A stretch of 34,877 nucleotides of DNA from a virus: IMG/VR virus record IMGVR_UViG_3300021963_000013. One strand, written 5' to 3'. The notes under the pieces are model-generated. The model was given only the letters and a program-made list of their open reading frames with translations, searched no databases and was not told the origin of the DNA. The translations under genes and the position numbers were made by a program. Shown in pieces: positions 3,745 to 28,248 of the stretch. The first letter of the stretch is position 1; the number at the start of each line of letters is the position of its first letter.

Positions 3745-4047
3745 ATGACAATCTTACGACCAGCACTTACTCCGCAAACAATAACAATTATACCACGTTA
3801 TAACGTACCGTATATTACTGTTATTTTATTAAACGAAGAAACGCAAGTTCTTAATCAATACGAAATAGAAGACTTAGTTTATTTAAACGGTTATTTAACA
3901 ATTCGATTTGACTTTGAATGTTTAGAGGGTCAAAGTTTCAATTTAGAAATAAAAGACGGTGATAATGTTTTATTTCGTGGCAAAGCCTTTGCGACCGATG
4001 AGGAAGATTTAGAGAATTACAAATTAAGTAAAAATTTACTACAATGA
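3745..4047 (+). CDS. hypothetical structural protein
   Basis: 100-aa ORF whose stop overlaps the portal start in an ATGA. Confidence 0.5.
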   Translation: MTILRPALTPQTITIIPRYNVPYITVILLNEETQVLNQYEIEDLVYLNGYLTIRFDFECLEGQSFNLEIKDGDNVLFRGKAFATDEEDLENYKLSKNLLQ

Positions 4048-7378: not shown

Positions 7379-7816
7379 ATGAAAACAGTAATAAACAAAC
7401 AATCGGGAAAGGTCTTGTTTGCAAGTGCAAATTTTGAAGATACAGAAACAGAAATAGGTATTGATGAAATTTTAACAGAGTTTTTTATACTTCCTTATTT
7501 TAACCAAGAAACGGGAGATTTTTACGAAGGTGCAAACCAAGAAGAAATTGCAGAATATCAAAAGAGTTTAGTTCCTCAAGTAATTACACGGAGACAATTC
7601 AAAATCGCTTTGGCTATATTGGGTAAAAATGAAACTGATATTTTAAACGGAATAAACCAACTTCCTGAGCCTACGAAAACAATCGCTTTAATAAGTTACA
7701 CCGAAGCGGGAACTTTTGAGCGTACAAATCCCGAATTAATATTTGTTGGTAAAACATTTTTGCAAATGACAGACGAGCAAATCGATAATATTTTTATAGT
7801 TGGAAATCAATATTAG
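7379..7816 (+). CDS. hypothetical protein (fibre-associated?)
   Basis: 145-aa ORF starting 1 nt after the fibre gene. Confidence 0.45.
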   Translation: MKTVINKQSGKVLFASANFEDTETEIGIDEILTEFFILPYFNQETGDFYEGANQEEIAEYQKSLVPQVITRRQFKIALAILGKNETDILNGINQLPEPTKTIALISYTEAGTFERTNPELIFVGKTFLQMTDEQIDNIFIVGNQY

Positions 7817-7823
7817 ATTAAGT

Positions 7824-8168
7824 ATGGGTTTACTTTTATTTTTTATTGCGGTTATTTTATTTATTCCGCTTTCGGTAATAAACTTTTTTTGTGTGCTTTA
7901 TAAATATAGTATTAATTGGAAAACTATAAACGGTTTTTTTCATCAAACTGCGATTGATATAGACAGATTCGGAAACAGAAATTTTAGAACGCTTTTAAAT
8001 TTAACGTTACAAAATAATGGTTACCAATTTGGGAATATTAATGAAACGATTTCAAGTGCTTTAGGTAAAAACAAAAGAGCTAATACATTAACAAAAGTAG
8101 GGTTTATTCTTTGCTACATTTTAGATAGTTTAGACGAAAATCACTGCATTAAATCAATACAAGAATGA
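7824..8168 (+). CDS. membrane protein, holin candidate
   Basis: The ATG at 7824 gives an N-terminal transmembrane segment 'GLLLFFIAVILFIPLSVINFFCVLY'. Its stop overlaps the next gene in an ATGA, and it lies upstream of the endolysin. The track start at 7800 is a TTG inside the previous gene. Confidence 0.4.
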   Translation: MGLLLFFIAVILFIPLSVINFFCVLYKYSINWKTINGFFHQTAIDIDRFGNRNFRTLLNLTLQNNGYQFGNINETISSALGKNKRANTLTKVGFILCYILDSLDENHCIKSIQE

Positions 8169-8671
8169 ATTTTTTTATAGATAATTGGCAATTTTTTATA
8201 GGTAGCTTTAGCGGACTTATTTTATATGTTATAAGGGATAGATATTTAGATAGAATAAATCGTAAAAAAGGTGATGTAGAGGTTAAAAAAGAAGAGTTAG
8301 ATTACGCTAATGAAACGAGGGAATATTTTCTCAATAGAGAGTCGGATTTAAAGGCGGAAAAACAAGAGTTAAAAGACGAACTCAAAATAATTAGAGATGA
8401 ATCAAAAGCCGAAAGACTTTATTACAGAGAAAAGCAAACCGAGTTAAGAACCGCTATTGAGGGTTTACAAACAAAATTTGACAGGATTTCTTTAAATTAT
8501 GCTTTAGAAGTAGAAAAATCGGAGAAATGGATGCAAAAATTCTTTGAGATTGAAAAAGAAAACAAAGCATTGAGTGAGAAATACGCATTTTTAGAGCGTG
8601 ATTATGAGCAGTTGAAAATAGACCATTACCAACTTAAACGTGATTTTGACAAATATAAAAAAGCAAACTAA
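8165..8671 (+). CDS. membrane-anchored coiled-coil protein of the lysis cassette (i-spanin-like or lysis regulator)
   Basis: N-terminal transmembrane segment 'WQFFIGSFSGLILYVI' followed by a long K/E coiled coil. ATGA overlaps on both sides. Confidence 0.45.
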   Translation: MNFFIDNWQFFIGSFSGLILYVIRDRYLDRINRKKGDVEVKKEELDYANETREYFLNRESDLKAEKQELKDELKIIRDESKAERLYYREKQTELRTAIEGLQTKFDRISLNYALEVEKSEKWMQKFFEIEKENKALSEKYAFLERDYEQLKIDHYQLKRDFDKYKKAN

Positions 8672-9120
8672 TGAAACTTTCGCAATCGGGATATGATTTA
8701 ATAAAAGAGTTTGAGGGTTTAAGTTTAAAACCTTACAAATGTAGTGCTGGTGTGCCTACTATTGGTTACGGGTCTACATACTACGAAAACGGTGTTAGAG
8801 TAACTATGAACGATTTACCGATAAGCAAAGACCGTGCTTTTGAGTTATTAAAAATAACCGCTTCACGCTTTGCAATTAAGGTAGAGAATTTACTTAAAAA
8901 ACCCGTTACTCAAAATCAGTTTAACGCTTTGGTATCTTTTGCTTATAACGTTGGTTCGGGTGCTTTGGCTTCGAGTACTTTACTTAAATTAGTAAACATA
9001 AACCCTAACGATGCTATGATAGCGAAAGAGTTTCTTAAATGGAATAAGGCTTCAGGAAAACCAATACAAGGTTTAACCAATAGAAGAATGAAAGAAAGTG
9101 CTTTGTATTTCACTAAATAG
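8671..9120 (+). CDS. endolysin, glycoside hydrolase family 24 (T4/lambda-type lysozyme)
   Basis: 'GYDLIKEFEGLSLKPYKCSAGVPTIGYGST' and 'NQFNALVSFAYNVG' are hallmark GH24 motifs. Confidence 0.85.
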   Translation: MKLSQSGYDLIKEFEGLSLKPYKCSAGVPTIGYGSTYYENGVRVTMNDLPISKDRAFELLKITASRFAIKVENLLKKPVTQNQFNALVSFAYNVGSGALASSTLLKLVNINPNDAMIAKEFLKWNKASGKPIQGLTNRRMKESALYFTK

Positions 9121-9166
9121 ACACGGTAAAGCCTCTTACTTAGTAACGTAACCGTGTATAGAAATA

Positions 9167-9194
9167 AAACCCTCAGATTAAAGAGGGTTTTTTT
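9167..9194 (+). terminator. rho-independent terminator ending the structural/lysis operon
   Basis: AAACCCTC pairs with GAGGGTTT, followed by T7. It is preceded by a second hairpin, ACACGGT (9121-9127) with ACCGTGT (9151-9157). Confidence 0.75.
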
Positions 9195-9290
9195 ATTTAA
9201 TGCGGGTTAAATCAATCATTAACACTAAAAAAATAAGTTAATGTCTGTTATTACAAGCAAAAATATATACTTTGTATAGAATAACAAACA

Positions 9291-9354
9291 TTTTATACCG
9301 ATAGGGTATACTTTGATAAAAATAAGCGTATTTCTTATCATATCGGGTATAAAA
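9291..9354. promoter_or_regulatory. inverted repeat in a 322-nt non-coding AT-rich region (operator or binding-site candidate)
   Basis: TTTTATACCGATA (9291-9303) versus TATCGGGTATAAAA (9341-9354) match as reverse complements with a 1-nt indel. The spacer carries a GATAA...TTATC near-palindrome. Confidence 0.35.
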
Positions 9355-9442
9355 TTATTATTTATAATCATTCTAAATAAAATACTAACTTACTAACTAT
9401 TAAAATTTTTCGTACTTTCGTAATAATTTAAAAACTAAATTT

Positions 9443-10549
9443 ATGAAAGACGGAAACAAACGATTTCACATTAAAGACAATTTAGCGATAATGTTAGGAT
9501 TGACTTTAAACGAAAACAAGAACTACAGACTTTCGCCCGAAAAACAAATCGAACTACAAAAGTTAAGGGCAAATAATGGTATTTTAGACGCTTGCGAAAA
9601 TGTAGGCGTAAATGCTGAAAACGCTCCGATGTTATGGCTTAAAACTAAACACGAAAGCGTAAGAGTTACAAATCCATTATTTAAAGCACCTGAGCAATTA
9701 AACTACGAGTTGCTTCAAAAGTCATTATTAAGCGATTTAAAAGACTATTCACCTAAATATAACGCTTATCAAAGGGAAACTTTAAAAGACGCTAATTTGT
9801 TAGTTGTAGACCCAGCAGACATACACATAGGTAAATTATGCAGTGCGTTTGAAGTTGGCGAAAGCTACGATAATCAAATAGCCGTTAGCAGAGTGTTAAA
9901 CGGTGTTAATGGAGTACTCGACAAAACAAGTAGTTTTAATATAGATAAAGTGTTATTTGTTATTGGTAATGACATTTTACACATCGATAATCCAAAAAGA
10001 ACAACCACAAGCGGAACGCCACAAGATACTGACGGAATTTGGCACTCTAATTTTTTAATTGCTAAACAACTTTATATCGATATTATCGAGAAGTTAATTT
10101 GCGTTGCTGATGTTCACGTTGTTTTTAACCCAAGTAACCACGATTATACAAACGGTTTCTTTTTAGCGCAAGTTATCGAAACGCATTTTAAAAACTGCGA
10201 GAATGTTACTTTTGATTGTAGCATTTCACATCGTAAGTATTTTGTTTATGGTCAAAATCTAATAGGAACTACTCACGGTGACGGTGCTAAAACTCAAGAC
10301 TTACCTTTGCTTATGGCCAATGAGAGTAAAGATTGGTCTAATTGTAAACATAGATACATATATTTGCACCACTTTCACCATAAAGTCGCTAAAGATTATA
10401 TGAGCGTTTGTGTTGAAGCTTTGAGAAGTCCAAGCGGGACAGATAGTTGGCATCACCGTAACGGCTACGAACACGCACCAAAAGCCGTTGAGGGTTTTAT
10501 ACATAGCAAAGAACACGGACAAATCGCACGAATAACACATTTATTTTAA
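9443..10549 (+). CDS. calcineurin-like metallophosphoesterase
   Basis: Ordered motifs DPADIH (DxH), GND..H, NPSNHD (GNHD-like), GTTHGDG and HHFHH. Confidence 0.75.
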   Translation: MKDGNKRFHIKDNLAIMLGLTLNENKNYRLSPEKQIELQKLRANNGILDACENVGVNAENAPMLWLKTKHESVRVTNPLFKAPEQLNYELLQKSLLSDLKDYSPKYNAYQRETLKDANLLVVDPADIHIGKLCSAFEVGESYDNQIAVSRVLNGVNGVLDKTSSFNIDKVLFVIGNDILHIDNPKRTTTSGTPQDTDGIWHSNFLIAKQLYIDIIEKLICVADVHVVFNPSNHDYTNGFFLAQVIETHFKNCENVTFDCSISHRKYFVYGQNLIGTTHGDGAKTQDLPLLMANESKDWSNCKHRYIYLHHFHHKVAKDYMSVCVEALRSPSGTDSWHHRNGYEHAPKAVEGFIHSKEHGQIARITHLF

Positions 10550-10553
10550 TATT

Positions 10554-10754
10554 ATGATACCAAACCACTACCCACAAATCTACGATGTTATAGACTTTGT
10601 GAAAGACAACGATTTAAACTTTAACGAGGGCAACGTTATAAAATACGTAGTCCGTTGCAGAAAAAAGGGAACACATTTACAAGACCTACAAAAAGCGAAA
10701 GACTATTTAGAGCGTGAAATAGATTACTTAACTAAAAAAGAGTTACAGAGATGA
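10554..10754 (+). CDS. DUF3310-family phage protein
   Basis: The pattern 'HY...D.IDF......F..GNVIKYV.R...KG...DL.KA.DYL' matches my recollection of DUF3310. Confidence 0.55.
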   Translation: MIPNHYPQIYDVIDFVKDNDLNFNEGNVIKYVVRCRKKGTHLQDLQKAKDYLEREIDYLTKKELQR

Positions 10755-11059
10755 AAACTGCAATAGCTGAATTAATAGAAATTAATAATAGAAACATTAA
10801 AAAATTAAAAGAATTATCTAAAACAGAAGAAAATAGATTTTATCAAGGTATGTTAACTTATGCACAAGCATTTAATTTAGATTTACAACACTTTAAAAAA
10901 TTAGAAAGAGAAATAATAAATGATGTTTACGATAATGCTTTACAGAATGAAAAACAGTTAGATTTAACACAAGGCTGTGAAAATCCACATTGTGATAATG
11001 GTAAAATAGAAATGCCTTATAATGAATTTATTAATTGTTCAATTTGTGAAAATAAATAA
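10751..11059 (+). CDS. hypothetical protein with a C-terminal Cys4 zinc-ribbon-like motif
   Basis: ATGA overlap with the upstream gene. Contains 'CENPHCDNG...CSIC'. Confidence 0.5.
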   Translation: MKTAIAELIEINNRNIKKLKELSKTEENRFYQGMLTYAQAFNLDLQHFKKLEREIINDVYDNALQNEKQLDLTQGCENPHCDNGKIEMPYNEFINCSICENK

Positions 11060-11061
11060 TT

Positions 11062-11466
11062 ATGGCAGTAAACTTATTACATAAATTGCCAAAAAAATAT
11101 TCTATAAATGGCATTGAGTACTATACGAGAACTAACGAAAAAGTAAATGACGTAAAAAACTTGACAAAATCAAATAACCATCAAATAAATAATATGAGTG
11201 ATAGTAAGGAATTAGAAGATGTTAACCGCATTAATGAGGTAAACATATCAAATAAAAAATTAAAAATAACTTTTGAAGATTGGCACTATACTTGTGGTGA
11301 TGGATGTTGTGATAATTACGGAACTTACCTATACTTAAACGACGAAAAGTTAGAACACCCCAATCCCGAAATACACGACAACGGGTATTTAGGTCAAGAT
11401 TTGCAAACTGGATTAGAAGCAGTATTAAAGAAATTGGGATATGAAGTTGAATTTGATAACAGATAA
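11062..11466 (+). CDS. hypothetical protein
   Basis: 134-aa ORF in the operon, 2 nt after the previous stop. Confidence 0.5.
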   Translation: MAVNLLHKLPKKYSINGIEYYTRTNEKVNDVKNLTKSNNHQINNMSDSKELEDVNRINEVNISNKKLKITFEDWHYTCGDGCCDNYGTYLYLNDEKLEHPNPEIHDNGYLGQDLQTGLEAVLKKLGYEVEFDNR

Positions 11467-11469
11467 CAA

Positions 11470-11592
11470 ATGAGCCAAACACCACTTCAGAGAATTAACC
11501 GAATATTAGCGTTTTATTACAAACGTGGAACGAATAAAGAGAGCGTTAATAAAGTTTACAGAAACATTTTAAAACTTAAATTTAACAAATGA
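11470..11592 (+). CDS. small hypothetical protein (40 aa), below the ORF-track cutoff
   Basis: The ATG at 11470 is 3 nt after the previous stop. Its TGA overlaps the ATG of the next gene (ATGA at 11589-11592). Confidence 0.3.
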   Translation: MSQTPLQRINRILAFYYKRGTNKESVNKVYRNILKLKFNK

Positions 11593-12035
11593 AAAAAACA
11601 TTAATTATATTAAGCGCATTCGTTCTATTCGGGTGCGCTTCTCGCAAAGTTTCTAAAACCGAAGTTAAAGAAACAACAGAAGTAAAAGCAATCGACACTA
11701 CAAAAACAGTAACAGAAAGCGAAAAAACAGAAAATAGTGTAGACACTTCAACTATTAACGAAATAGAGATTATACCGATTGACAATACTAAACCGATTAT
11801 CTATAACAACAAAAAGGTTTTTAACGGTATTTTAAGGCTTAAAACAACTAAAGTCAATAAAGTAGTAGAGATTACAGAGAAATTCGCTAAAATCGAACAA
11901 AAAGGCGTAAATAAAAGCGGTAAACAAGTTATCGAAGTAAAGCAAAAAGAAACCGAGCGTAAAAGTTTTTTTAGTTGGTGGTGGTTATTGCTTTTAATTC
12001 CGATTTATTTTTTGTATAAAAAGTATTTTAAATAG
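11589..12035 (+). CDS. lipoprotein with a C-terminal transmembrane anchor (u-spanin-like architecture)
   Basis: Signal peptide plus lipobox 'SAFVLFGC'. The middle is T/K/E-rich. C-terminal transmembrane segment 'FFSWWWLLLLIPIYFLY'. Confidence 0.55.
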   Translation: MKKTLIILSAFVLFGCASRKVSKTEVKETTEVKAIDTTKTVTESEKTENSVDTSTINEIEIIPIDNTKPIIYNNKKVFNGILRLKTTKVNKVVEITEKFAKIEQKGVNKSGKQVIEVKQKETERKSFFSWWWLLLLIPIYFLYKKYFK

Positions 12036-12090
12036 AAAAAAAGTTTATCTTTACAATGTTTTCATAATATTTAGTTTTTGGTTGATTGAT

Positions 12091-12127
12091 AAAAACCCCA
12101 CGCTTAGAAGATAAGGTGGGGTTTTTT
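12091..12127. terminator. bidirectional rho-independent terminator between the convergent arms
   Basis: A5-ACCCCAC...GTGGGGT-T6. The hairpin is flanked by an A-run and a T-run, so it can terminate in both directions. Confidence 0.75.
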
Positions 12128-12131
12128 GATT

Positions 12132-12407
12132 TTATAATCCTTTTTCGTCTTTATAAATTTCTAATAGTTCGCTCATTTTATATTTACTAACATTACCATC
12201 AATAGTATATGTTTCTCCAATTTCTGTACTGTCAAAAAAATCTATTCTTTTTTTAATACACCACTCTGCAAATCCAATAGCAAATTCATCTGCTATTTGT
12301 ATTAAATTATTAATGTTTAAATAATAATTATCAATATCTTTTTGTGATGGATTTGCTTCTAAAGGTAAATTTTGAACTTTGTCTGTTATTTTTTGTATTA
12401 GTGTCAT
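12132..12407 (-). CDS. hypothetical protein
   Basis: 91-aa ORF, last gene of the minus arm. Overlaps the upstream gene by 4 nt. Confidence 0.55.
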   Translation of the reverse strand: MTLIQKITDKVQNLPLEANPSQKDIDNYYLNINNLIQIADEFAIGFAEWCIKKRIDFFDSTEIGETYTIDGNVSKYKMSELLEIYKDEKGL

Positions 12408-12607
12408 ATCTTAAATGTTTCGTTGTAGTATTTTTCAGCTCTAATTTCGCCATCCATTATTCCGTTAACATCGCCTTCGCTATAAGCATCAATAATCTGT
12501 TGCTTCTCCATTTCTTTGGCTTGTTCAATTTCTTTTTTGTACAAATTGAAATTATGCCCTAACCTTGTTAATTCTTGTACTAAAAATTCTACTGCTGTTT
12601 TTTTCAT
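12404..12607 (-). CDS. hypothetical protein
   Basis: 67-aa ORF, translationally coupled to the next gene. Confidence 0.55.
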   Translation of the reverse strand: MKKTAVEFLVQELTRLGHNFNLYKKEIEQAKEMEKQQIIDAYSEGDVNGIMDGEIRAEKYYNETFKI

Positions 12608-12640
12608 CTTATTTCTTTTTAAATGTTTTGTTTGTGATTT

Positions 12641-12793
12641 TCATATCTTGAATTCTATGAATGATAAATTACCTCTAATGTCATTAGTATTACAAAAATA
12701 AGGAAGTTTCCATCCGTAAAATACTAAACATTTATTAACCCACTTTGGAAATAAAACAAATCGTAAATAAAACTTTGGTTTCATATTATTCAT
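12641..12793 (-). CDS. small hypothetical protein (50 aa), below the ORF-track cutoff
   Basis: ATG at 12793, TGA at 12641-12643. It fills an otherwise empty gap and is preceded by a TAATTTTG -7-like box (12819-12826). Confidence 0.25.
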   Translation of the reverse strand: MNNMKPKFYLRFVLFPKWVNKCLVFYGWKLPYFCNTNDIRGNLSFIEFKI

Positions 12794-12818
12794 TATTAGA
12801 AATTAAGTAATACCAAAG

Positions 12819-12826
12819 CAAAATTA
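12819..12826 (-). promoter_or_regulatory. -7-like box TAATTTTG (Bacteroidota TAnnTTTG)
   Basis: The plus strand reads CAAAATTA. Only a weak TTTA sits at the -33 position. Confidence 0.3.
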
Positions 12827-12870
12827 TCTTCGGTCTTATAAACTCGTATGCAATCCATATTAAAAGTATT

Positions 12871-13080
12871 TCATTTTAATAAGTCTTTAATTCGCTCAAT
12901 CACTAACTCGGTTAAATCCTTATCGGTTAGCCCTAATTTTTTACCGAACGTTACATATTGCTCGATGTTAAACTTTGTAGCTCGTTCGTACTGTAGCCTT
13001 TGCGTGTGGCTTAATTCAAGTCTATTGCAAATATCTGTATTGCTCAATCCTGATTGCTTAAATAGTTGTTGGTATATCAT
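12871..13080 (-). CDS. XRE/Cro-like helix-turn-helix protein
   Basis: 'QSGLSNTDICNRLELSHTQRLQYERA' fits the XRE helix-turn-helix pattern. Confidence 0.45.
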   Translation of the reverse strand: MIYQQLFKQSGLSNTDICNRLELSHTQRLQYERATKFNIEQYVTFGKKLGLTDKDLTELVIERIKDLLK

Positions 13081-13096
13081 AGTTTTAAATTTTTAA

Positions 13097-13129
13097 CAAA
13101 TATAGTAATTATTTTATAACTGTTGCAAA
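13097..13129 (-). promoter_or_regulatory. Bacteroidota-type promoter TTTG-N21-TATATTTG
   Basis: On the plus strand, CAAATATA (13097-13104) and CAAA (13126-13129) are 21 nt apart. The site is 17 nt upstream of the ATG at 13080. Confidence 0.45.
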
Positions 13130-13371
13130 TAATTTAATTTGCTTTCGTAAATGTGGTAATTAACGTAAATAACTTGCGGTATTATTATATCGCTATTGTT
13201 GTTAAAGTTCTTAAGTTTAAAAACTTCGTCTTCGTTGAAATACCGTTCTTTTCTGTAGCCTTGTACAATTCTAAGCCGTAATGGTATTTTTAATTTATCG
13301 GCTCTGTATTTCATTCCGCTACTGCTTAAATTGGTAATTATCTGTACTTCTTTTGATGTGTATGTTTTCAT
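13114..13371 (-). CDS. putative DNA-binding protein (MerR/excisionase-like HTH)
   Basis: 'YTSKEVQIITNLSSSGMKYRADKLKI' and 'ERYFNEDEVFKL' resemble MerR/Xis-type helix-turn-helix regions. Confidence 0.35.
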   Translation of the reverse strand: MKTYTSKEVQIITNLSSSGMKYRADKLKIPLRLRIVQGYRKERYFNEDEVFKLKNFNNNSDIIIPQVIYVNYHIYESKLNYLQQL

Positions 13372-13434
13372 TTTTAATCGTTTTTGGAAGATTGGCGAAA
13401 CAAACCTTCGCTTATCATTGAGTTATGTGCAAGG

Positions 13435-13755
13435 CTACGAAAGGGCATCTAAATCAGATTTTAGTCTTGAAACCAAACTATCTTCTCCATCATCTCCAGA
13501 AAGATACCAATCAATTCTTTGAGCGTATATTTCAGCTTTTTTTAATATTTCAATTCCATCTTTAAAAATTTGCTGTACATCTTCTCTATAAACGTGGTCA
13601 AATCTTTCTTCGGGATATTTTTCAAAATATTCTTTATCGTAATATCTTAAATCCTCTTTCGATTTTTCTTTACCTTGTTTATCCAATTCTTGTTGAATAT
13701 CCTCCCAAATTTGTCTTATTTTGTACTGATTGTAATCAAAAGCTCCTCCGCTCAT
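13435..13755 (-). CDS. hypothetical protein (106 aa from the ATG at 13755)
   Basis: The track ORF starts at 13791, inside hairpin cassette I1. The 'MSGGAFDY...' start at 13755 sits behind the conserved leader AAAACTAAAC and is preferred. Confidence 0.55.
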   Translation of the reverse strand: MSGGAFDYNQYKIRQIWEDIQQELDKQGKEKSKEDLRYYDKEYFEKYPEERFDHVYREDVQQIFKDGIEILKKAEIYAQRIDWYLSGDDGEDSLVSRLKSDLDALS

Positions 13756-13784
13756 AATGTTTAGTTTTATAACCCGCCCAGCAC

Positions 13785-13914
13785 ATAACAAGTGTTTGGC
13801 AAAAAAGCGGGTTCTGTTATTAATTTAAAGTTTGTTTTTTCTTTGTATGTTTGGGTACTTAATCAAAGTTTTAGGCTTATTTAACCGCTTCTTCGCCAAG
13901 CACTCGAACGTTAT
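13785..13914 (-). repeat. intergenic hairpin cassette I1 (130 nt)
   Basis: Conserved ends are ATAACA (left) and AACGTTAT (right). AGTGTTTGGC (13791-13800) pairs with GCCAAGCACT (13895-13904). Inner stem is AAGCGG (13805-13810) with CCGCTT (13885-13890). Confidence 0.6.
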
Positions 13915-13931
13915 AAGAAATAGCTACGAAA

Positions 13932-14150
13932 CTACTTCAAAGAACATTTTTCCTCACAACCTAACTTTATTCCTTTTCTATATTCTTCTAATGAGATTGT
14001 CTTAATGTCAAGATTGAATTTAGAAACTTCTTTCATAAAATCTTTTGTAGTTTCTTTTGTCATTGTGTGCAAGATTGAAACTCTTACAGCATTTCCACAT
14101 TCAGGACAAATACTCATTTTTACTTTTACGTCTTTTTCTTCGATTTCCAT
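13932..14150 (-). CDS. hypothetical zinc-ribbon protein
   Basis: 72 aa with 'CPECGNAV' and a C-terminal 'CEEKC'. Confidence 0.5.
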   Translation of the reverse strand: MEIEEKDVKVKMSICPECGNAVRVSILHTMTKETTKDFMKEVSKFNLDIKTISLEEYRKGIKLGCEEKCSLK

Positions 14151-14184
14151 AATAATATTTAGTTTTAAAATCCCGCTACTTCTT

Positions 14185-14259
14185 ATAACAGGTGTTTGTA
14201 AATACCAGCCGAATTTATGTTGGTGCGTAGGCTGGCATCTACAAGCACCAAAACGTTAT
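14185..14259 (-). repeat. intergenic hairpin cassette I2 (75 nt)
   Basis: ATAACA, then GGTGTTTGTA pairing with TACAAGCACC, then AACGTTAT. Inner stem is CCAGCC with GGCTGG. The arms are homologous to I1 but the inner stem differs. Confidence 0.6.
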
Positions 14260-14267
14260 GTGATACT

Positions 14268-14564
14268 TTAGTAGTAAGACATCTTACCGAATGGATTAGG
14301 CGAATTGTAAATCTTTTTCATATTCAATCTTTCACGCCAAAACTTGCCGTACTTTTTATTTATTTCGCATCTTGCATTTACGTGAGGATTTGTATCTCCG
14401 TTAGCTTCAAGTTCTTTTGATAAATGATATAATTCAGTTGATATTTGTTTAGTATATTTATCAATTATTTTTTCATCTGTATTCGGTAAAGCATCAATAA
14501 AAGCATCACATAACACAGGTTTTGTGCTATTGCTTGGTTCGGTGTTTTCTGAATGTTTAGTCAT
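14268..14564 (-). CDS. hypothetical protein
   Basis: 98-aa ORF between cassettes I2 and I3. Confidence 0.5.
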   Translation of the reverse strand: MTKHSENTEPSNSTKPVLCDAFIDALPNTDEKIIDKYTKQISTELYHLSKELEANGDTNPHVNARCEINKKYGKFWRERLNMKKIYNSPNPFGKMSYY

Positions 14565-14640
14565 AATCTTTTATTTTTAGTGTTTAAATTAATGTTTTGG
14601 TTTATTTTTGGGCAACAGACACAAAGCCACAAAACGTTAT
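14565..14640 (-). repeat. degenerate cassette I3 (right arm only)
   Basis: ACAAAGCCACAAAACGTTATG is homologous to the I2 right arm. There is no ATAACA left end. AACGTTAT overlaps the stop codon of 14637..14918. Confidence 0.35.
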
Positions 14641-14918
14641 GACACATCAAATACTACCACATCATCAATATCATAATACCCCGTCGATGTAATTAATATA
14701 CATTTTTCTTTTAATATTTTAATAAATAGGACTTCGCCTTTATCTGTTTTTGTAAAGGCTTTGTAAATCATTACACCATCACGCAATCTCTTTACCTGAA
14801 TGCAATGCCAATGCGTTAACCAATAATTTCGGGGAAAACTATCTATACCAGCCTGAGATTTTGGTTTATGAGTAACACCTGATTGATGATTTAGCACCAT
14901 TTCAACTTCATAATTCAT
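14637..14918 (-). CDS. hypothetical protein
   Basis: 93-aa ORF. Confidence 0.5.
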   Translation of the reverse strand: MNYEVEMVLNHQSGVTHKPKSQAGIDSFPRNYWLTHWHCIQVKRLRDGVMIYKAFTKTDKGEVLFIKILKEKCILITSTGYYDIDDVVVFDVS

Positions 14919-14953
14919 TTTGTCTAATTTAAGTTGTTAATAATTGACGTGTC

Positions 14954-15014
14954 ATAACAATGTACATAACGACAGACTCCTATCGTCGCCCGATCGTATG
15001 TACTTGAACGTTAT
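14954..15014 (-). repeat. intergenic hairpin cassette I4 (61 nt)
   Basis: ATAACAAT, then GTACATA (14962-14968) pairing with TATGTAC (14997-15003), then AACGTTAT. Confidence 0.55.
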
Positions 15015-15022
15015 ATGATAGC

Positions 15023-15379
15023 TTACCCAAGTTTGCGTTTAAGCCTCTCTGCAAGTTCGTAATCTTCATTTTCAACGGCTTTTTGTATTTGTTGTTCAAT
15101 TGATAAATTACTAATAACATCTTCTTGTCCTTCAAGTAATGTTTTCGGGTCAATATATTCAATCCATCCTTCCGACCATAAATCAAGTGCAACATTTGAA
15201 ATATGTTCTTCTCCAAGCATATTGCTCATAAATCTATTATTGTTTTTAAAATATATTTGTCCGTTAGCAATTCCAATTAAAACTAATTCATCGCCCATAT
15301 AACTTCTATCTCCAAATCCATTAGCAGGTTTAATTCTTGTGATTTTGTCACCTTTTTTAAATTCAAATATTGTTTTCAT
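15023..15379 (-). CDS. hypothetical protein with a C-terminal UVR-like motif
   Basis: 'IEQQIQKAVENEDYELAERLKRKL' resembles the UvrB/UvrC (UVR) motif. Confidence 0.5.
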   Translation of the reverse strand: MKTIFEFKKGDKITRIKPANGFGDRSYMGDELVLIGIANGQIYFKNNNRFMSNMLGEEHISNVALDLWSEGWIEYIDPKTLLEGQEDVISNLSIEQQIQKAVENEDYELAERLKRKLG

Positions 15380-15404
15380 AATTACGTTTTTAAAAAGCCA
15401 TCAT

Positions 15405-15531
15405 ATAACAATGCATTGTAGCAATTGCGGCATAAGGCTTAATTAATAAATGTTTTTGTACTTGTTTGGTTAGGTTTTGAATCGATAATTTGGCAGTCCT
15501 AATCCCAACTGCAACAATGCTTTAACGTTAG
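15405..15531 (-). repeat. intergenic hairpin cassette I5 (127 nt)
   Basis: ATAACAAT, then GCATTGT (15413-15419) pairing with ACAATGC (15514-15520), then AACGTTA. Confidence 0.55.
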
Positions 15532-15539
15532 TGGTAATG

Positions 15540-15743
15540 CTAACCAAAGTCTATAACACGACCTTTTCCGCTTTCGTACCATTTAGTAACACTTCCAGCT
15601 TCTTCAATTTGTTTATTTGTTTCAGCTTCTACTTTTCGGTAAGAATCTCTCATTCTTTGCTTATCTTCTTCTTTCGGGCAGTCATAAAATGAATCCGTGT
15701 CAAGTAATAATTTTTCTAATTCTTCGTCTGTTAAATTTCTCAT
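15540..15743 (-). CDS. hypothetical protein
   Basis: 67-aa acidic ORF. Confidence 0.5.
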   Translation of the reverse strand: MRNLTDEELEKLLLDTDSFYDCPKEEDKQRMRDSYRKVEAETNKQIEEAGSVTKWYESGKGRVIDFG

Positions 15744-15783
15744 TTTTAATACAATTTAGTTGTTAATTAACCCGTACTACCGC

Positions 15784-15910
15784 TAACAATGCATAACACT
15801 AATTACGGTTTCGGTCTTGAATTTATAGTTTAGTTTGTATCAGTGATACGGTTTTTAATCTGAAAGTTTCGGCTTATTTAGTCCGTAACTAGAGTTATGC
15901 TCAACGTTAT
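15784..15910 (-). repeat. intergenic hairpin cassette I6 (127 nt)
   Basis: The left side runs TAACAAT, GCATAAC, a, CTA, a, TTACGG (15791-15808). It pairs with CCGTAA, c, TAG, a, GTTATGC (15883-15900), and AACGTTAT ends the cassette. That is 16 bp with two 1x1 mismatches. Confidence 0.6.
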
Positions 15911-15925
15911 AATCAACAATCTCAA

Positions 15926-15933
15926 CAAAGATA
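15926..15933 (-). promoter_or_regulatory. -7-like box TATCTTTG just upstream of cassette I6
   Basis: The plus strand reads CAAAGATA. The same octamer occurs at 24599-24606 and 25298-25305. No clear -33 TTTG. Confidence 0.3.
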
Positions 15934-15965
15934 GTAATTATTTTAATACGTTTAACTTTTTTATG

Positions 15966-16709
15966 TTATTTAGAATGAGTTAAAATAGAGTTAAAATCAA
16001 TATTGTAATTATGAAATATATCTATACATTCTATAAAATCGTATTTATTAGGCTTTATGTGAATTATAAAAAGTCCTTTAATATCTTTATCAAACATTTT
16101 TTTATAAATGCTTAATTGTAATGAATAATGGTAAAAATTACAATCGTTAATCTCTTTAAAAACTCCTAACATTTTTTTGTTATAGGAAAAAGTTTCTATT
16201 TTATCGTTGGTTTTAAAGTCTAAAATATAATAGTTGTTGTCTTTATCTTTGCAAATTAAATCAACTTGACCCGCTAAAAAATCATTGTGTACTATGTATT
16301 CAGTATAAACGGGAGTTAATCGACCACTAATAAAAAAGTCTTTTATAAATTGAATAGCTACTTTTGATTTAGGATAAAAATCAATTAAATATTCAATATC
16401 TAAATTCATAAAATCAATTTCTATTTCGTTTGATATTACAGAAAATTTACCGTCAATATAATCTTCAAATATTTTATGTATTGCAGTTCCTATTTCACAA
16501 GACTTTTTAGCTTTATCATTCCAAAGTTTTAAAATCTCTTCTTGTGTTTTATTTTCTTTTTTTGCAATACGTTTTGAATGGTAATCGCTATCAAATTTAT
16601 TTTTAAATTGATTTATAAAGGTTGTAACCGATATTAATTTTTTACCGTTTTTAGTATAAGTGTGGCTTCCACTATCGAAAACCACACTTTTATCAATACT
16701 ACATTTCAT
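15966..16709 (-). CDS. PD-(D/E)XK (RecB/Cas4-like) nuclease
   Basis: 'GTAIHKIFE', 'GQVDLICKD...YYILDFKT' (D...D/ExK) and 'QLSIYKKM' (QxxxY). The start at 16709 (or 16721) is preferred over the track start at 16775, which lies deep inside the upstream gene. Confidence 0.6.
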   Translation of the reverse strand: MKCSIDKSVVFDSGSHTYTKNGKKLISVTTFINQFKNKFDSDYHSKRIAKKENKTQEEILKLWNDKAKKSCEIGTAIHKIFEDYIDGKFSVISNEIEIDFMNLDIEYLIDFYPKSKVAIQFIKDFFISGRLTPVYTEYIVHNDFLAGQVDLICKDKDNNYYILDFKTNDKIETFSYNKKMLGVFKEINDCNFYHYSLQLSIYKKMFDKDIKGLFIIHIKPNKYDFIECIDIFHNYNIDFNSILTHSK

Positions 16710-17349
16710 TTCCTGCTTCATACATTTCAGCTTCCCACGCTTGACTAAATTCTTTATCTGCAAACAATTCAACAAGGCCTCCTATTTGACAAAGTCTTAA
16801 AACTTCGTCTTTATCCATTCCTAAATTTTTGGCTATTTTTTCATCGCTCCAGTTTCTTTTTTTAAGGTCAATTACAATATCGCTCATAGCTTCTATTTTG
16901 TGTTTACCTCTTGCTCTATTATGTCTTATTGTTGAAGCTACTCTATCGTTTATTTTTGTTCTATCTTCGTTAATTGTTACTACTGGTAAATATCCGTGTA
17001 CTCTTTTTTGTATTTCCTCGCATTCTTTACCTACTCTATTTCTGTGGAATCCGTCTATTACTTCTCTAGTTTCTCCGTTATCTTCTAGCATCGATACAAT
17101 AGGTTGAGTGTATCCGTCTGCTGAAATTGAAAGCCTTAATAATTCCATTTCTGGAGGAGCTACACTATTTGGATTATAATCATTTGCGTGTACGCTATCG
17201 TTTTTTACCCATAAAACACAATCTACTGGTTCTGTCTTCATAGGACTAATATTGTGCATCGCTATTTTAATTTCGTTTAATGCATTTACTCTACTGTCTA
17301 TATCTAAAGACTGTAATTCGTTAATCAGTTCAATAATTTTTGTTGTCAT
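16699..17349 (-). CDS. ParB/Srx-like nuclease-domain protein (IbrB-like)
   Basis: 'ANDYNPNSV', 'QPIV' and 'VIDGFHRNRV' (the DGxHR core of the ParB-like domain). Paired with a PAPS-reductase-like gene, as in IbrAB. Confidence 0.65.
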   Translation of the reverse strand: MTTKIIELINELQSLDIDSRVNALNEIKIAMHNISPMKTEPVDCVLWVKNDSVHANDYNPNSVAPPEMELLRLSISADGYTQPIVSMLEDNGETREVIDGFHRNRVGKECEEIQKRVHGYLPVVTINEDRTKINDRVASTIRHNRARGKHKIEAMSDIVIDLKKRNWSDEKIAKNLGMDKDEVLRLCQIGGLVELFADKEFSQAWEAEMYEAGNEM

Positions 17350-17353
17350 AATA

Positions 17354-18568
17354 TTATAATTTAAAATTGTTTAGTTCTCTTTGTTCTTTTTTTAGTTTTA
17401 AGTATTTATTATATGCATCTGTTTTGTGTTGAGTAAAACCTAATCCTTTGCACCAATAATCATTTCTTAATAATGATTTACAAATACGTCTCCAACTTGG
17501 AGCTACTCTTTCACTTTCCAAAATACTAGGAGCTTCGTCTGGCAATCCGTCTATATATCCTCTCTCTTCCCACCACTTTACAAAAGTATATATTTTATTT
17601 TTATAATGTTCAGATGTTACTTGTGGTAAAGTGTTTAGTATTAATTCAGAAAATGATTTCCAAGTGTGATGCATTGGTTTTGTTATTTTACCATATCCAT
17701 TTATATTTCCAGTATCTTGAACATATAAAGCACCGCTATTTGCACCCTCAACTCTTGCGACTACTTTTGCCCAAGTTTCTGGCTCTATTAAATGAAATAA
17801 ATATAAACCTCTTCTTTGGTCGTCTCCGTATGGTTGGCAAATTCTTTGCAAGTGAATAGATAAACCAGACTTTTGCATAAGGTCGTATAAATGATTGTGT
17901 CTTTTATCTTTGTTTTTACTATGATAAATCCAAATATCCTCTGTTTTCCAATCATAAATAGGATATACATTAAATACGTTTTCTGTTACTTTTGTTGTCC
18001 ATTGCTTTTGATTGAATGTTATTTTTTTATCACTGGCAATAGTTCTAAATCTATTCAAACTTTCATCGGCTCTAATTCCAACTAAACAAGCACAAGTTTT
18101 GCCTTGAGAATACCACTCTCCAAACTCTGGTACAAACTCTTCAAACTCCATTCCGTCTCTAAAAAAAGGAAAATAATTTTCGTCTGTTATACCTAATTTT
18201 GGTACTTCTCTAATCCAATCGTTTTTTACTTCTTTATCCCAACACTTCCAAAAAGGTTTAAATACAGAAACTGCATTTCTTAAATGTATAGGTAAACATA
18301 ACCAATAAACTTCTAAATTATCTTTATAAATTTCTATGCATTCTGTCATATGGTCTATTGTTAATTTATACTGACCTTCTAAGTCAACTATTAATAGACC
18401 TATTTTTACGTTTCTTTTTATAGCTTCGTCCATTACTAAATGGAGCATAACAGTACTATCTTTACCAGCAGAAAATGAAAGGTATATTTTCTCAAAATTA
18501 TCAAATGTATATTTTATCCTTTCAATACTTGCTTCGTAAACGTTTTGATTTAAATAATGTTTAGGCAT
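17354..18568 (-). CDS. PAPS-reductase-family PP-loop protein (IbrA-like, with a DUF3440-like C-terminal region)
   Basis: PP-loop 'YLSFSAGKDSTVMLHL'. 404 aa with a long C-terminal extension, 4 nt upstream of the ParB-like gene. Confidence 0.7.
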   Translation of the reverse strand: MPKHYLNQNVYEASIERIKYTFDNFEKIYLSFSAGKDSTVMLHLVMDEAIKRNVKIGLLIVDLEGQYKLTIDHMTECIEIYKDNLEVYWLCLPIHLRNAVSVFKPFWKCWDKEVKNDWIREVPKLGITDENYFPFFRDGMEFEEFVPEFGEWYSQGKTCACLVGIRADESLNRFRTIASDKKITFNQKQWTTKVTENVFNVYPIYDWKTEDIWIYHSKNKDKRHNHLYDLMQKSGLSIHLQRICQPYGDDQRRGLYLFHLIEPETWAKVVARVEGANSGALYVQDTGNINGYGKITKPMHHTWKSFSELILNTLPQVTSEHYKNKIYTFVKWWEERGYIDGLPDEAPSILESERVAPSWRRICKSLLRNDYWCKGLGFTQHKTDAYNKYLKLKKEQRELNNFKL

Positions 18569-27084: not shown

Positions 27085-28248
27085 ATGTTTAAGCGGACAA
27101 CGGCTATTAATAAGATGCTTAAGATGACCGCTCGAAAAAAAGTTATTCAAGGCGGTACTTCGGCAGGTAAGACTTACGGTATTATCCCTATACTTATTGA
27201 CAAAGCAATTAAAAACCAACGTATAAAAATAAGCGTTGTTGCTGAAACTTTACCCGCAGTTAAAGAGGGTGCGCTCGATATCTTTAAACAAGTAATGTAC
27301 GATACTAATCGTTGGATTGAAGATAATTGGAACGCTTCCTCTTTAACTTATACTTTCGGAAGTGGTAGCCGAATTCAATTCAAATCCTACGACTCTGTAG
27401 GTAAAGCAAAGTCAAGCGGTAAAAGAGATATACTATTTTTAAACGAAGCTAACCACATAGCTTTCGATATTGCCGATGCTTTAATGATACGTTCAAAAGA
27501 AACGTGGATAGATTTCAACCCCGATAATGAATTTTGGGTACATACTGAAGTATTAACCGAGCCAAATTCAGAGTTTTTATTACTTACGTACTACGACAAT
27601 GAAGCTTGTCCAAAGGAAACAATAGAGGATTTAGAGTTAAAGAAACAAAAGGCTTTGACTTCTGACTATTGGGCGAATTGGTGTAGGGTTTATATCGATG
27701 GTGAGATAGGTAATTTAGAGGGTGTCATATTTAATAATTGGAAAACGATTAACGAGATACCAAAAGAAGCCCGTTTATTAGGATATGGTTTGGATTTTGG
27801 ATATACAAATGACCCTACTTCTATAATCGAAGTGTATCTTTATAACGGACAAAGAATATTAAATGAGATATGCTACCAAAAAGGGTTAAGTAATAGCCAA
27901 ATTGCAAAGTACATTACAACTAAATTACCTTGTTATTGTGATAGCGCAGAGCCTAAAAGTATAGACGAATTAAAATCTTACGGTGTTAGGGCTTATGCTG
28001 TTACAAAAGGTAGCGATAGCATTAACTTTGGTATTCAAGTAATGCAAGAACAAGACTATTTAGTCACTTCAAAGTCTGTAAACCTAACCAAAGAGTTAAG
28101 AAAATACGCTTGGGATAAAGACAAAAAGACTAACGAGAAGTTAAACAAACCAATAGACAACTACAACCACGCTATCGATGCAACCAGATACCACGAAATG
28201 GAAACTGTAGGTTTGCGCAAGTCAAAAGGTAAATACGACATTCGCTAA
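27085..28248 (+). CDS. terminase large subunit
   Basis: Walker A 'GGTSAGKTYG' and Walker B 'ILFLNEA'. Nuclease motifs 'CDSAEP' and 'HAIDATRY'. Confidence 0.85.
   Translation: MFKRTTAINKMLKMTARKKVIQGGTSAGKTYGIIPILIDKAIKNQRIKISVVAETLPAVKEGALDIFKQVMYDTNRWIEDNWNASSLTYTFGSGSRIQFKSYDSVGKAKSSGKRDILFLNEANHIAFDIADALMIRSKETWIDFNPDNEFWVHTEVLTEPNSEFLLLTYYDNEACPKETIEDLELKKQKALTSDYWANWCRVYIDGEIGNLEGVIFNNWKTINEIPKEARLLGYGLDFGYTNDPTSIIEVYLYNGQRILNEICYQKGLSNSQIAKYITTKLPCYCDSAEPKSIDELKSYGVRAYAVTKGSDSINFGIQVMQEQDYLVTSKSVNLTKELRKYAWDKDKKTNEKLNKPIDNYNHAIDATRYHEMETVGLRKSKGKYDIR

Follow-up and report, generated by a model that had tools for sequence, protein, structure and literature searches.

The window, that is the whole stretch of viral DNA analysed here (34,877 nt), carries six hairpin sites within 2.1 kb, located between small ORFs of the minus strand. 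The hairpins are long and imperfect, with conserved ends that read TAACA...AACGTTA on the plus strand, corresponding to TAACG...TGTTA on the gene-sense (minus) strand, where the layout is TAACG, a 4-nt bulge, an imperfect stem of about 20 bp, a loop and TGTTA. An earlier note on this DNA had placed long hairpins with conserved ends in these intergenic gaps (I1 to I6, here E1 to E6), in agreement with our folds and model matches. With ViennaRNA, the sense-strand folds of I1, I2, I4, I5 and I6 had minimum free energies (MFE) of −20 to −30 kcal/mol, and five elements matched, on the minus strand, a covariance model (CM R1) built from relatives. All six, including I3, are full members of one hairpin family.

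E1 (13786-13913, minus strand as for all six; 128 nt, 128.6 bits, E = 1.9e-25) belongs to the commonest sequence type of the family, and an 88% identical copy was found behind a different gene in locus L003. E2 (14186-14258) is 73 nt long (59.6 bits, E = 1.2e-10), E5 (15406-15530) 125 nt (72.2 bits, E = 2.4e-13) and E6 (15784-15909) 126 nt (70.9 bits, E = 4.5e-13), the ends of E6 being TAACG at 15909-15905 and TGTTA at 15788-15784. I3 had been described as degenerate, at 14565-14640; it is in fact a full element, E3, of 129 nt at 14511-14639 (83 bits, E = 1.2e-15). Its loop contains the ATG (14564) of the ORF 14268-14564, its 3' arm is coding, and its 3' end reads GTG-TTA in frame with this ORF. 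The short E4 (14955-15013, 59 nt, MFE −20.1) reached only 12.7 bits with the model; despite this low score it has the same TAACG...TGTTA ends and obeys the flank-pairing rule described below, and a short class of 70-90 nt is present family-wide.

The array is anchored upstream (15910-16775, minus strand) by a PD-(D/E)XK exonuclease gene at 15966-16775 (PHROG exonuclease, E = 3e-32). Erf, NinB and NinG/Rap are encoded, together with this exonuclease, just upstream of the array. At or above the gathering score, no Rfam 15 family matched anywhere in the window, and no recombinase gene was found in its 34.9 kb, profile searches with Pfam and PHROG included, in line with the absence of an integrase stated earlier.

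Cross-ORF flank pairing and the cassette units

The 11 nt that follow each hairpin (y) pair with the 11 nt that precede the next one (x'), across the intervening ORF. This cross-ORF complementarity, absent from the earlier note, is the decisive feature of the array. The six units of the window show 7-10 Watson-Crick (WC) pairs plus one T.G out of 11, the two flanks of the same hairpin pairing at 2-3 of 11. Over the family, y and x' across an ORF form on average 8.2 WC pairs of 12 (mode 10, n = 316), versus 4.0 of 12 for the flanks of one hairpin and 3.8 for random pairs; the outer stem is 11 bp long, with a T.G at position 7 in 81%. Since y pairs with x' across the ORF, a unit joined end to end would rebuild one long hairpin, x'-TAAC-G-stem-loop-stem-TGTTA-y. 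The "homologous leader (CGGG...)" reported previously is in part y, one half of the outer stem.

The first x'-TAAC junction is provided by the 3' flank of the exonuclease gene (x' 15920-15910). Predicted cassette 1 (15527-15905, minus strand as for the following five) then consists of the G, E6, TGTTA, y (15783-15773), an ORF of 67 aa (15540-15743) that had no Pfam or PHROG match, x' (15541-15531) and TAAC, with 7 WC pairs and one G.U of 11. Cassette 2 (15010-15526) comprises E5, y (15405-15395), an ORF of 118 aa (15023-15379) with a weak UVR motif (Pfam UVR, 22.4 bits), x' (15024-15014) and TAAC. Cassette 3 (14636-15009) contains E4, y (14954-14944), an ORF of 93 aa (14637-14918), x' (14650-14640) and TAAC, and cassette 4 (14255-14635) E3, y (14510-14500, coding), the ORF 14268-14564 (98 aa), x' (14269-14259) and TAAC. 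Cassette 5 (13910-14254) is made of E2, y (14185-14175), an ORF of 72 aa (13932-14150), x' (13924-13914) and TAAC; in each of cassettes 2 to 5 the pairing is 10 WC plus the T.G of 11. Cassette 6 (13422-13909), with 8 WC plus the T.G of 11, comprises E1, y (13785-13775), an ORF of 106 aa (13435-13755, phrog_6724), x' (13436-13426) and the terminal TAAC (13425-13422). The sequence past this last TAAC (array end, 13372-13421, minus strand) is non-hairpin (TCAATGATAAGCGAAGGTTTGTTTCGCC...), and at this end, TAAC-TCAATGATAAGCG, neither the attI-like motif TAYTATATRTA discussed below nor a recombinase gene beyond it was found. The window thus presents six units of one ORF and one putative attC each, with chimeric R boxes at the junctions, as in an integron cassette array. 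Strict integrons carry an IntI, a tyrosine recombinase having the IntI-specific additional domain, and an attI site beside it at which cassettes insert; the window has neither. Provided that the sites count as attC-type, the array agrees with the definition of a CALIN, two or more attC sites a few kb apart at most and no integrase nearby.

Covariation, junctions and the recombinase of relatives

Among the viral contigs of IMG/VR the hairpin family has more than 600 matches, the longest arrays holding about 19. A strict pattern search of IMG/VR retrieved 115 stretches, which hold 467 model matches. The ends are TAACG in 417 and TGTTA in 420 of 443 elements, lengths range from 59 to 131 nt with a variable loop, and the geometry includes a one-sided bulge of 4-5 nt and fixed C.A and G.U positions. 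Double-sided changes occur at 15 of the 20 inner pairs among 37 seed sequences, and at all 20 among 136 independent elements from recombinase-selected loci. In the latter set 94% of cells are paired and 878 are compensatory (232 ± 11 in shuffles), and slid controls gave at most 0.12 versus 0.70. Covariation of this strength was reached by 0 of 500 shuffles in each of the two sets. The argument of the earlier note from conserved ends and compensatory stems to selection on structure is borne out. The cargo is highly diverse, 301 of the 345 clusters in the sample being singletons, with DNA methyltransferases and further accessory genes over-represented.

Comparison with related loci points to each small gene being a swappable cassette, the units differing between relatives exactly at TAAC(G). 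Between the window and L001, where the exonuclease anchor is 90% conserved up to TAACG, homology stops at 15905, inside TAACG, and starts again at 13432. In 24 of 24 clusters with a common upstream flank the hairpin is a different one, homology ending at element positions 4-8. The flanks of L122 and L010 are 98-99.6% identical, and the two loci differ by a single unit of 1,120 bp bounded by TAAC...TAAC, the downstream hairpin being retained in the shorter array. Cassette 6 recurs in four other loci (L084, L088, L054 and L051; 96-98% aa identity, same y and x') with three further continuations past its TAAC: L084 has another hairpin there, L088 an attI-like TAACTGCTTATATATAC, and L054 and L051 have a non-hairpin sequence in common. 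These junctions are consistent with a crossover of a folded bottom strand in AA/C (the slash marks the exchange point). A second and less consistent junction lies at TGTTA/y. The linkage of a hairpin to its downstream cassette is broken in 20 of 32 clusters, a pattern not expected from one canonical crossover point, and the same hairpin types occur in unrelated contexts in 452 pairs.

A tyrosine recombinase (YR) gene lies directly after the array in four relatives (L011, L017, L036 and L101). The phage protein has 266 aa and falls in the Xer/IntI clade, with archaeal XerA, XerD and XerC as best matches; a bacterial form of about 350 aa has an extra N-terminal domain. Against TIGR02249 the YR of relatives scored 150-190 bits, in two pieces, the cut-off being 265, and its alignment with VchIntIA (2a3v) skips residues ~209-245, the IntI-specific insertion being missing. 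A search seeded with the YR protein gave 153 model matches in 80 loci, all on the YR strand and 152 of them upstream of the YR gene; at least one hairpin was present in 35 of the 60 YR loci having enough upstream sequence. At the array end by the YR, a conserved attI-like site, x'-TAAC-TAYTATATRTA, was found in 51 of 76 loci. From this genomic association we infer that the recombinase of relatives acts on the hairpins; a role as integrase in lysogeny is also conceivable for it. No recombinase was found beyond the last element in 43 of the 45 arrays with at least 3 kb there.

In viral segments the ORF lies on the strand of the model sense in a ratio of 235:1; in bacterial segments it lies on the opposite strand (26:1), with the same flank pairing as in viruses. 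The bacterial hairpins keep their relation to the recombinase and the attI-like site, so hairpin polarity follows the recombinase and not transcription. L249, from Flavobacterium difficile, has nine sites of 125-126 nt, with recombinase, attI-like site and cassettes in one direction. The folded strand had been left unresolved in the earlier note, and folding energy is indeed no guide to it (MFE −30.3 for both sense and antisense); homology with the canonically organised bacterial arrays assigns it to the minus strand, the "bottom" strand of integrons. The phage ORFs then lie on the folded strand, each hairpin being upstream of its ORF and transcribed. Additional effects at the RNA level, for example through start codons inside loops, are possible and would be secondary.

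Competing readings and known systems

On these sequence comparisons, the region 13422-15909 of this Flavobacterium-type siphophage is, with a probability of about 0.8, an array of six mobile gene cassettes whose elements are attC-type, structure-specific recombination sites. Because the recombinase is missing from the window, the array is CALIN-like. Among the four functions listed previously with no choice between them, this corresponds to the third, integron attC-like sites, whose marks are AAC...GTT ends, a length that varies and a single small ORF in each unit. The recombinase would come in trans from another phage infecting the same cell or from a chromosomal array of the host; the window array would depend on such an outside source to be active, and may otherwise be a relic. 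The enzyme would fold the minus ("bottom") strand and exchange strands within TAA/C, as integron integrases do at attC, and cassettes would be excised as circles and inserted at the attI-like site or at other hairpins. The TGTTA/y junction would reflect occasional exchange of the other strand, or conversion between hairpins.

The phage hairpins, being on the transcribed sense strand (235:1), might instead be primarily RNA elements of a polycistronic early mRNA, either RNase III-type processing or stabiliser sites, with a 15-bp GUUA-y/x'-UAAC stem around each cistron as in rRNA, or hairpins of translational control. The invariant G.U wobbles on the sense strand (G5.U, column 27/215 in 131 of 135, and the outer T.G at position 7), the start codons in the loops of some hairpin types, the in-frame GTG-TTA and the A-rich leaders would suit this explanation. 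We consider it unlikely, because in bacterial arrays the hairpins are antisense to the ORFs (26:1) and keep their polarity toward the recombinase and attI-like site, the unit-precise indels and TAAC(G) junctions are DNA-level events, and an RNA function gives no reason for the link to a tyrosine recombinase. RNase III or stabiliser sites, among the options listed earlier, are not supported as primary function, although an RNA role may exist on top of the DNA role.

Less probable still are recombination hotspots with no dedicated recombinase, similar to the stem-loops (PeSLs) of T4-type phages, in which NinG/Rap would cut hairpins or cruciforms and Erf and an exonuclease would repair them, modules being shuffled by homology or structure. 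Such functions (Erf, NinB, NinG/Rap and the PD-(D/E)XK exonuclease) are encoded next to the array, most arrays lack a recombinase, identical hairpin types recur in unrelated contexts and junctions occur at both hairpin boundaries. This scheme, however, leaves unexplained the 11-bp cross-ORF complementarity with its fixed T.G, which needs the unit ends to meet, the attI-like site and recombinase at array ends, and the same architecture in bacterial chromosomes; homologous exchange would need more than the 5-nt junction core. It is very improbable that the elements are intrinsic terminator/promoter cassettes, or miniature inverted-repeat transposable elements inserted between genes, which would likewise give palindromes in the gaps, with conserved ends and several subfamilies shared by different contigs. 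No hairpin has a T-run terminator, the sole terminator-like site lying elsewhere on the plus strand; sigma-70-like matches (30 versus a shuffle mean of 21.8 ± 4.2) are not tied to the elements, and no Bacteroidetes TAnnTTTG motif was seen by eye in the leaders. This, with the antisense polarity in bacteria (26:1), also speaks against the PeSL-like terminator/promoter cassettes suggested earlier as primary function. As to miniature elements, the stems covary and are not copies of one master sequence, the mobile unit takes in the ORF, and there are no target-site duplications besides the common TAAC core.

The evidence points to a large and coherent family of cassette arrays in Flavobacterium-type phages and Bacteroidota chromosomes, with its own recombinase subfamily and attI-like site. 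We lean, with some reserve, towards a distinct and so far unrecognised integron-like class in these hosts and phages, which would combine a short Xer-like recombinase with no IntI insertion, attC-like hairpins whose outer stem of 11 bp is specific to the cassette and has the fixed T.G, and a mirror-image phage cassette pool (ORFs on the folded strand). Located in early operons, this pool would keep accessory and anti-defence genes, DNA methyltransferases for example, available for shuffling, and may exchange with host arrays or be mobilised by them. If active, the system would explain the gene-by-gene assembly and exchange of hypervariable small early gene regions, would make the cassette families, about 345 in this sample, a list of candidates for accessory and anti-defence functions of phages, and would mean that single-strand recombination of the attC type can do without the IntI-specific domain. 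For annotation, cassette limits can be set by TAACG...TGTTA hairpins together with cross-ORF 11-mers.

Canonical attC sites are defined by R''/R' boxes (RYYYAAC/GTTRRRY), L boxes, a central spacer, extrahelical bases and a variable loop, over 57-141 nt. The elements resemble them as imperfect hairpins of 59-131 nt with AAC...GTT cores, nnnTAAC/GTTAnnn fitting the R boxes at 4 of 7 positions, with structure kept by covariation, one small and mostly promoterless ORF per unit and very diverse cargo. The inferred crossover within TAA/C of the folded strand, the chimeric outer boxes in arrays and, in relatives, the attI-like site and tyrosine recombinase at one array end are also integron-like, and the window array, having no enzyme, fits the CALIN definition in form. 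The differences are a recombinase with no IntI-specific insertion of ~37 aa and below IntI cut-offs, an outer paired region of 11 bp with fixed T.G instead of 3-4 bp, a one-sided 4-5-nt bulge in place of the symmetric unpaired central spacer, and fixed C.A and G.U positions where canonical attC sites have extrahelical bases. Moreover, phage ORFs lie on the folded strand with the hairpin before the ORF, and the second junction TGTTA/y is common.

Sedentary chromosomal integrons, such as the Vibrio cholerae repeats, share long arrays (here up to ~19) of near-uniform sites of ~125-130 nt and a cargo rich in defence- or anti-defence-type genes such as methyltransferases, but the present family belongs to Bacteroidota and their phages, uses another recombinase subfamily and places its phage copies in the early operon of a ~35-kb virus. 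In Treponema denticola-type integrons the integrase is co-oriented with the array; the bacterial relatives of the L249 type are similar, with recombinase, attI-like site and co-directional cassettes. The viral loci differ in that the recombinase gene follows the cassette ORFs in the same orientation; this arises because, with respect to site polarity, the ORFs are reversed and the recombinase is not. Single-strand hairpin substrates have a precedent among Xer enzymes. Xer-type systems (the CTXphi attP(+) hairpin with XerCD, Acinetobacter pdif) share the Xer-like clade and modules bounded by inverted core sites, but pdif are 28-bp duplex sites with no hairpin covariation, and CTXphi integrates at one site and lacks a cassette array. 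PeSLs are likewise stem-loops between small early ORFs of a hypervariable phage region, with genes shuffled at boundaries; they consist of an early promoter and a stem-loop and are thought to be homology-driven, whereas here no promoter or terminator signature is present, and cross-ORF flank pairing, unit-precise junctions, a recombinase and an attI-like site are found.

Complete integrons have been described as very rare in Bacteroidetes (PMC9024848). For phages, the literature records only a small number of complete integrons and some isolated CALINs, CALINs of virulent phages among them (PMC9892861). In the sections of that study available to us the predicted sites are isolated, and the hairpin family, the flank rule and the recombinase are not described. 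P12002L_attC1, called there by HattCI, is a short member of the hairpin family and the only member put to experiment; it gave no verified IntI1 recombinants. According to the same study, the attC sites of PH101, which share the TAACG...TGTTA design, did recombine with attI1 when IntI1 was the integrase.

Hairpin array of the early operon and its sequence family

The window is a tailed-phage genome of 34.9 kb, with the portal gene at 4044-5690 and the terminase large subunit gene at 27085-28248. Its closest GenBank match by megablast, to the Flavobacterium siphophages vB_FspS_snusmum/mymlan, showed 80% identity over 558 nt only, and a tblastn search of GenBank phages with the exonuclease gave no close relatives; the relatives used for comparison were therefore taken from IMG/VR. 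The array of six cassettes (13422-15909) was located distally in an early operon of the minus strand, which codes, in this order, for Erf, DUF3127, NinB, primase/helicase, NinG/Rap, PAPS-reductase/DUF3440, a ParB-like protein and a PD-(D/E)XK exonuclease, followed by six small ORFs of 67-118 aa with essentially no family matches. The ParB-like nuclease-domain protein (phrog_2159) and the PAPS-reductase/DUF3440 protein (16699-18568, minus strand) are encoded as a conserved pair immediately preceding the exonuclease and the array, and other arrays include a PAPS-reductase-like protein among their cassettes. Past the last TAAC, a short separate hairpin (GGCGAAACAAACCTTCGC, 13372-13421), kept in the related locus L001 and lying outside the attC-like family, precedes an 85-aa ORF (13114-13371).

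The hairpins that the earlier note had placed between the small ORFs were borne out, all gaps reading TAACG, 4 nt, stem, loop, stem and TGTTA on the minus strand. R1, a covariance model of the hairpin family built from relatives, recovers five window elements with E values of 1e-10 to 2e-25. The third hairpin, which had been taken for degenerate, is a full 129-nt element (14511-14639) recovered by R1, with a coding 3' arm and with the start codon (ATG) of the following ORF in its loop; the fourth is a 59-nt short variant with an R1 score of 12.7 bits only. A scan of the whole window at Rfam gathering thresholds gave 0 matches.

A strict pattern, TAACG-N6-TGCTTG...CAAAC-N3-TGTTA, matched 115 IMG/VR stretches, in which R1 found 467 elements in same-strand arrays of up to about 19. 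The covariance model was adopted because home-made scanners, based on ungapped stems or on constrained MFE per length, gave too many false positives (103/581 and 256/1199 at -0.2 kcal/nt). The ends TAACG and TGTTA were present in 417 and 420 of 443 elements, respectively, and the element length showed a mode of 125-130 nt with a minor class of 70-90 nt. In a seed of 37 sequences, double-sided changes were found at 15 of the 20 inner pairs and the covariation score was reached in 0/500 shuffles. For 136 elements taken from loci that had been selected independently, covariation extended to all 20 inner pairs and 94% of cells were paired, with 878 compensatory cells compared to 232 ± 11 in shuffles and a covariation score of 0.70 compared to at most 0.12 with slid partners. 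On the minus-type (R1-sense) strand, two non-Watson-Crick pairs were fixed, G5.U (134/135) and G.U at column 27/215 (131/135), and a C.A mismatch was frequent at column 16/225 (74/135 unpaired).

The loops of about 80 nt of the long elements (13820-13880, 15440-15500 and 15820-15880; alignment A1) are kept within sequence subfamilies and, read in the sense direction, have A-rich motifs in common (…TTCGATTAA…ACAAAAC…TTTAAATTAATAAC…). Some of them are, on the plus strand, similar to the -7 box of Bacteroidetes (TAnnTTTG), one example being TATGTTTG in the first hairpin.

Cassette junctions and pairing across the ORF

The junction evidence was drawn from counts of linkage between clusters, from individual examples and from a search for indels of whole units, a first sliding-window breakpoint walk having suffered from artefacts at alignment ends and from the variable loops. 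Between the window and L001, the exonuclease gene is 97% identical at the amino acid level and the surrounding region 90% at the nucleotide level. The homology stops at 15905, within TAACG, and restarts at 13432, past the last cassette; between these breakpoints L001 carries five other ORFs and the hairpins belonging to them. In 24/24 clusters of loci with a common upstream flank, the hairpins are different and the homology stops at element positions 4-8. With a common downstream flank, the hairpin is also common in 12/32 clusters, and in the other 20 the homology begins exactly at TGTTA|y, where y denotes the 11 nt after TGTTA and x' the 11 nt before the next TAAC(G) on the gene-sense strand. 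A single canonical crossover does not predict this frequent second junction.

Two related loci, L122 and L010, have flanks 98-99.6% identical; the difference between them is a single unit of 1,120 bp delimited by TAAC...TAAC, the short array retaining the downstream hairpin (identity 1.00). From this indel, the unit is G-hairpin-TGTTA-y-ORF-x'-TAAC. Cassette 6 of the window was found in four other loci at 96-98% aa identity with y and x' unchanged. Its TAAC is followed there in three further ways, by a hairpin again in L084, by an attI-like sequence in L088 and by a non-hairpin sequence common to L054 and L051. In L088, a homologue of the window cassette at 13435-13755 is followed by TAAC-TGCTTATATATAC, similar to the attI-like consensus, at which the locus is truncated. 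This suggests that the L088 contig has the recombinase end missing from the window.

Across the ORF, y and x' exhibited a mean of 8.2/12 Watson-Crick pairs (mode 10, n=316), compared to 4.0 for the two flanks of one hairpin, no better than the random value of 3.8. Positions 1-6 were paired in 85-89%, position 7 was a fixed T.G (81%), positions 8-11 were paired in 64-85%, and no pairing was seen further out. The six window cassettes showed 7-10 Watson-Crick pairs plus the T.G out of 11 across the ORF and 2-3 between flanks of the same hairpin. Since y pairs with the far-side x' and not with the other flank of its own hairpin, the functional site would be the long hairpin x'-TAAC-G-stem-loop-stem-TGTTA-y, present only once the two ends of a unit join. 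The integron cassette, with a site formed by joined ends and chimeric boxes in the array, follows the same logic.

Recombinase, attI-like site and polarity

In four of the loci, a phmmer screen revealed a XerD-like tyrosine recombinase of 266-276 aa whose gene directly follows the last x'-TAAC. In the reverse test, with the recombinase protein as query, 80 IMG/VR loci contained 153 R1 matches, all on the recombinase strand and 152 of them upstream of the gene; of the 60 loci that had 1.5 kb or more of upstream sequence, 35 contained at least one match. Beside the gene, 51/76 loci have an x'-like flank, conserved and with T at -7 in 100%, and then TAAC-TAYTATATRTA, together a putative attI-like site, as in L121 (IMGVR_UViG_3300020045_012733), where the 266-aa recombinase at 8001-8798 has x'-TAAC-TATTATATATCC beside it. 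The protein has the tyrosine-recombinase catalytic residues and its best matches were archaeal XerA, XerD/XerC and IntI. Its alignment with VchIntIA was in two pieces, skipping the IntI-specific insertion, and stayed below all curated cut-offs; by these criteria, the recombinase of the relatives is not classed as an IntI. The gene is absent from the window, as from 43/45 comparable arrays, and its link to the arrays is, at the level of sequence, an association only.

In a GTDB scan with the recombinase profile, only two close matches were obtained, from a Flavobacterium MAG (63%) and an "uncultured Gammaproteobacteria" MAG (58%), below which follow numerous homologues from Bacteroidota with identities of at most 47%. 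The Bacteroidota homologues sampled are about 350 aa long, with a conserved N-terminal extension of about 85 aa (…WSQSQKAWYVPD…) that the phage enzymes do not have; the homologue in L237 has 584 aa. R1 showed that arrays adjoin many of these homologues, for example in Flavobacterium difficile (nine sites, 125-126 nt), F. cellulosilyticum, Saprospiraceae, Ignavibacteria and Pedobacter members. Chromosomal arrays with near-identical sites beside Xer-like recombinases of about 350 aa were seen in L249 (F. difficile, 7746-16594; sites 125-126 nt), L269, L227, L222, L226, L232 and L237.

In bacterial arrays the ORFs run opposite to the R1 sense (26:1), the layout of canonical integrons, in which the ORF is followed by attC on the top strand, whereas in viral loci they lie on the R1-sense strand (235:1). 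Because the ORF strand flips while the flank pairing and its T.G are the same in both (example L249), hairpin polarity would track the recombinase/attI-like end, not transcription, which argues for a primary role at the DNA level. From the bacterial arrays and the junction polarity, the minus strand of the window was assigned as the presumed integron-type bottom (folded) strand. Folding energy did not serve as a strand test, sense and antisense MFE being equal (-30.3, p = 0.94).

The attC-like reading, alternatives and cargo

Among the four functions proposed in the earlier note, the attC-like reading is the best supported, and we consider it quite probable (about 0.8) that the hairpins are attC-like recombination sites. 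The window array is CALIN-like, a cluster of attC sites without integrase, and would be part of a broader integron-like system. Roles at the RNA level are possible as an added layer, since in phages the hairpins are transcribed, and start codons lie in some loops. For hairpins with coding sequence directly after them, a reading as intron or in-gene insertion was rejected: the upstream ORFs reach their stop codons 9-12 nt before TAACG, and the downstream ORF shares its frame with a loop ATG (or GTG-TTA). For archaeal bulge-helix-bulge splicing or IS200/IS605-type ends, no matching enzyme was found with a TnpA query.

Complete integrons are very rare in Bacteroidetes according to IntegronFinder 2.0 (PMC9024848), and CALINs in virulent phages were reported in 2023 (PMC9892861). 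Among the sites of the latter paper, P12002L_attC1 of Polaribacter phage P12002L, the one of six sites without verified IntI1 recombinants, is a short member of the hairpin family; R1 gave one weak match only (25 bits) on this phage, whose short sites were identified by visual inspection and correspond to primer sequences given in the paper. The paper also describes attC sites of Pseudoalteromonas phage PH101 that recombined as efficiently as attCaadA7, and the predicted PH101 sites in the supplementary primer table have the same TAACG...TGTTA design. That table also holds a close TAACAACG...ATGTTA variant from another virulent phage, probably Tetrasphaera phage TJE1, and the design may therefore extend to phages of non-Bacteroidota hosts. 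Beyond PMC9892861, literature searches gave no account of the family, the flank rule across it, the inverted ORF orientation in phage arrays or the Xer-like recombinase and the attI-like site beside it.

The 436 cassette ORFs (median 103 aa) fell into 345 clusters, including 301 singletons; the recurrent families were N6/N4 and C5 DNA methyltransferases, YopX, a PAPS-reductase-like protein and cREC_REC. In L065, a small Hin-like serine recombinase ORF (4309-4953, plus strand) between two array hairpins (4153-4278 and 5539-5669) appears to be carried as a cassette. In some hairpin types the reading frame of a loop ATG continues through the 3' arm (…AAACAC-GTG-TTA) into the downstream ORF, as in the window at 14511-14639, L020 at 1139-1265 and L013 at 4330-4457, and methyltransferase and YopX cassettes thereby get a common N-terminal peptide encoded by the hairpin (M..IKIKDQTPHCSKHVL...). 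Of the 436 ORFs, about 164 may begin within the upstream hairpin, a number that first-ATG ORF calling may overcount.
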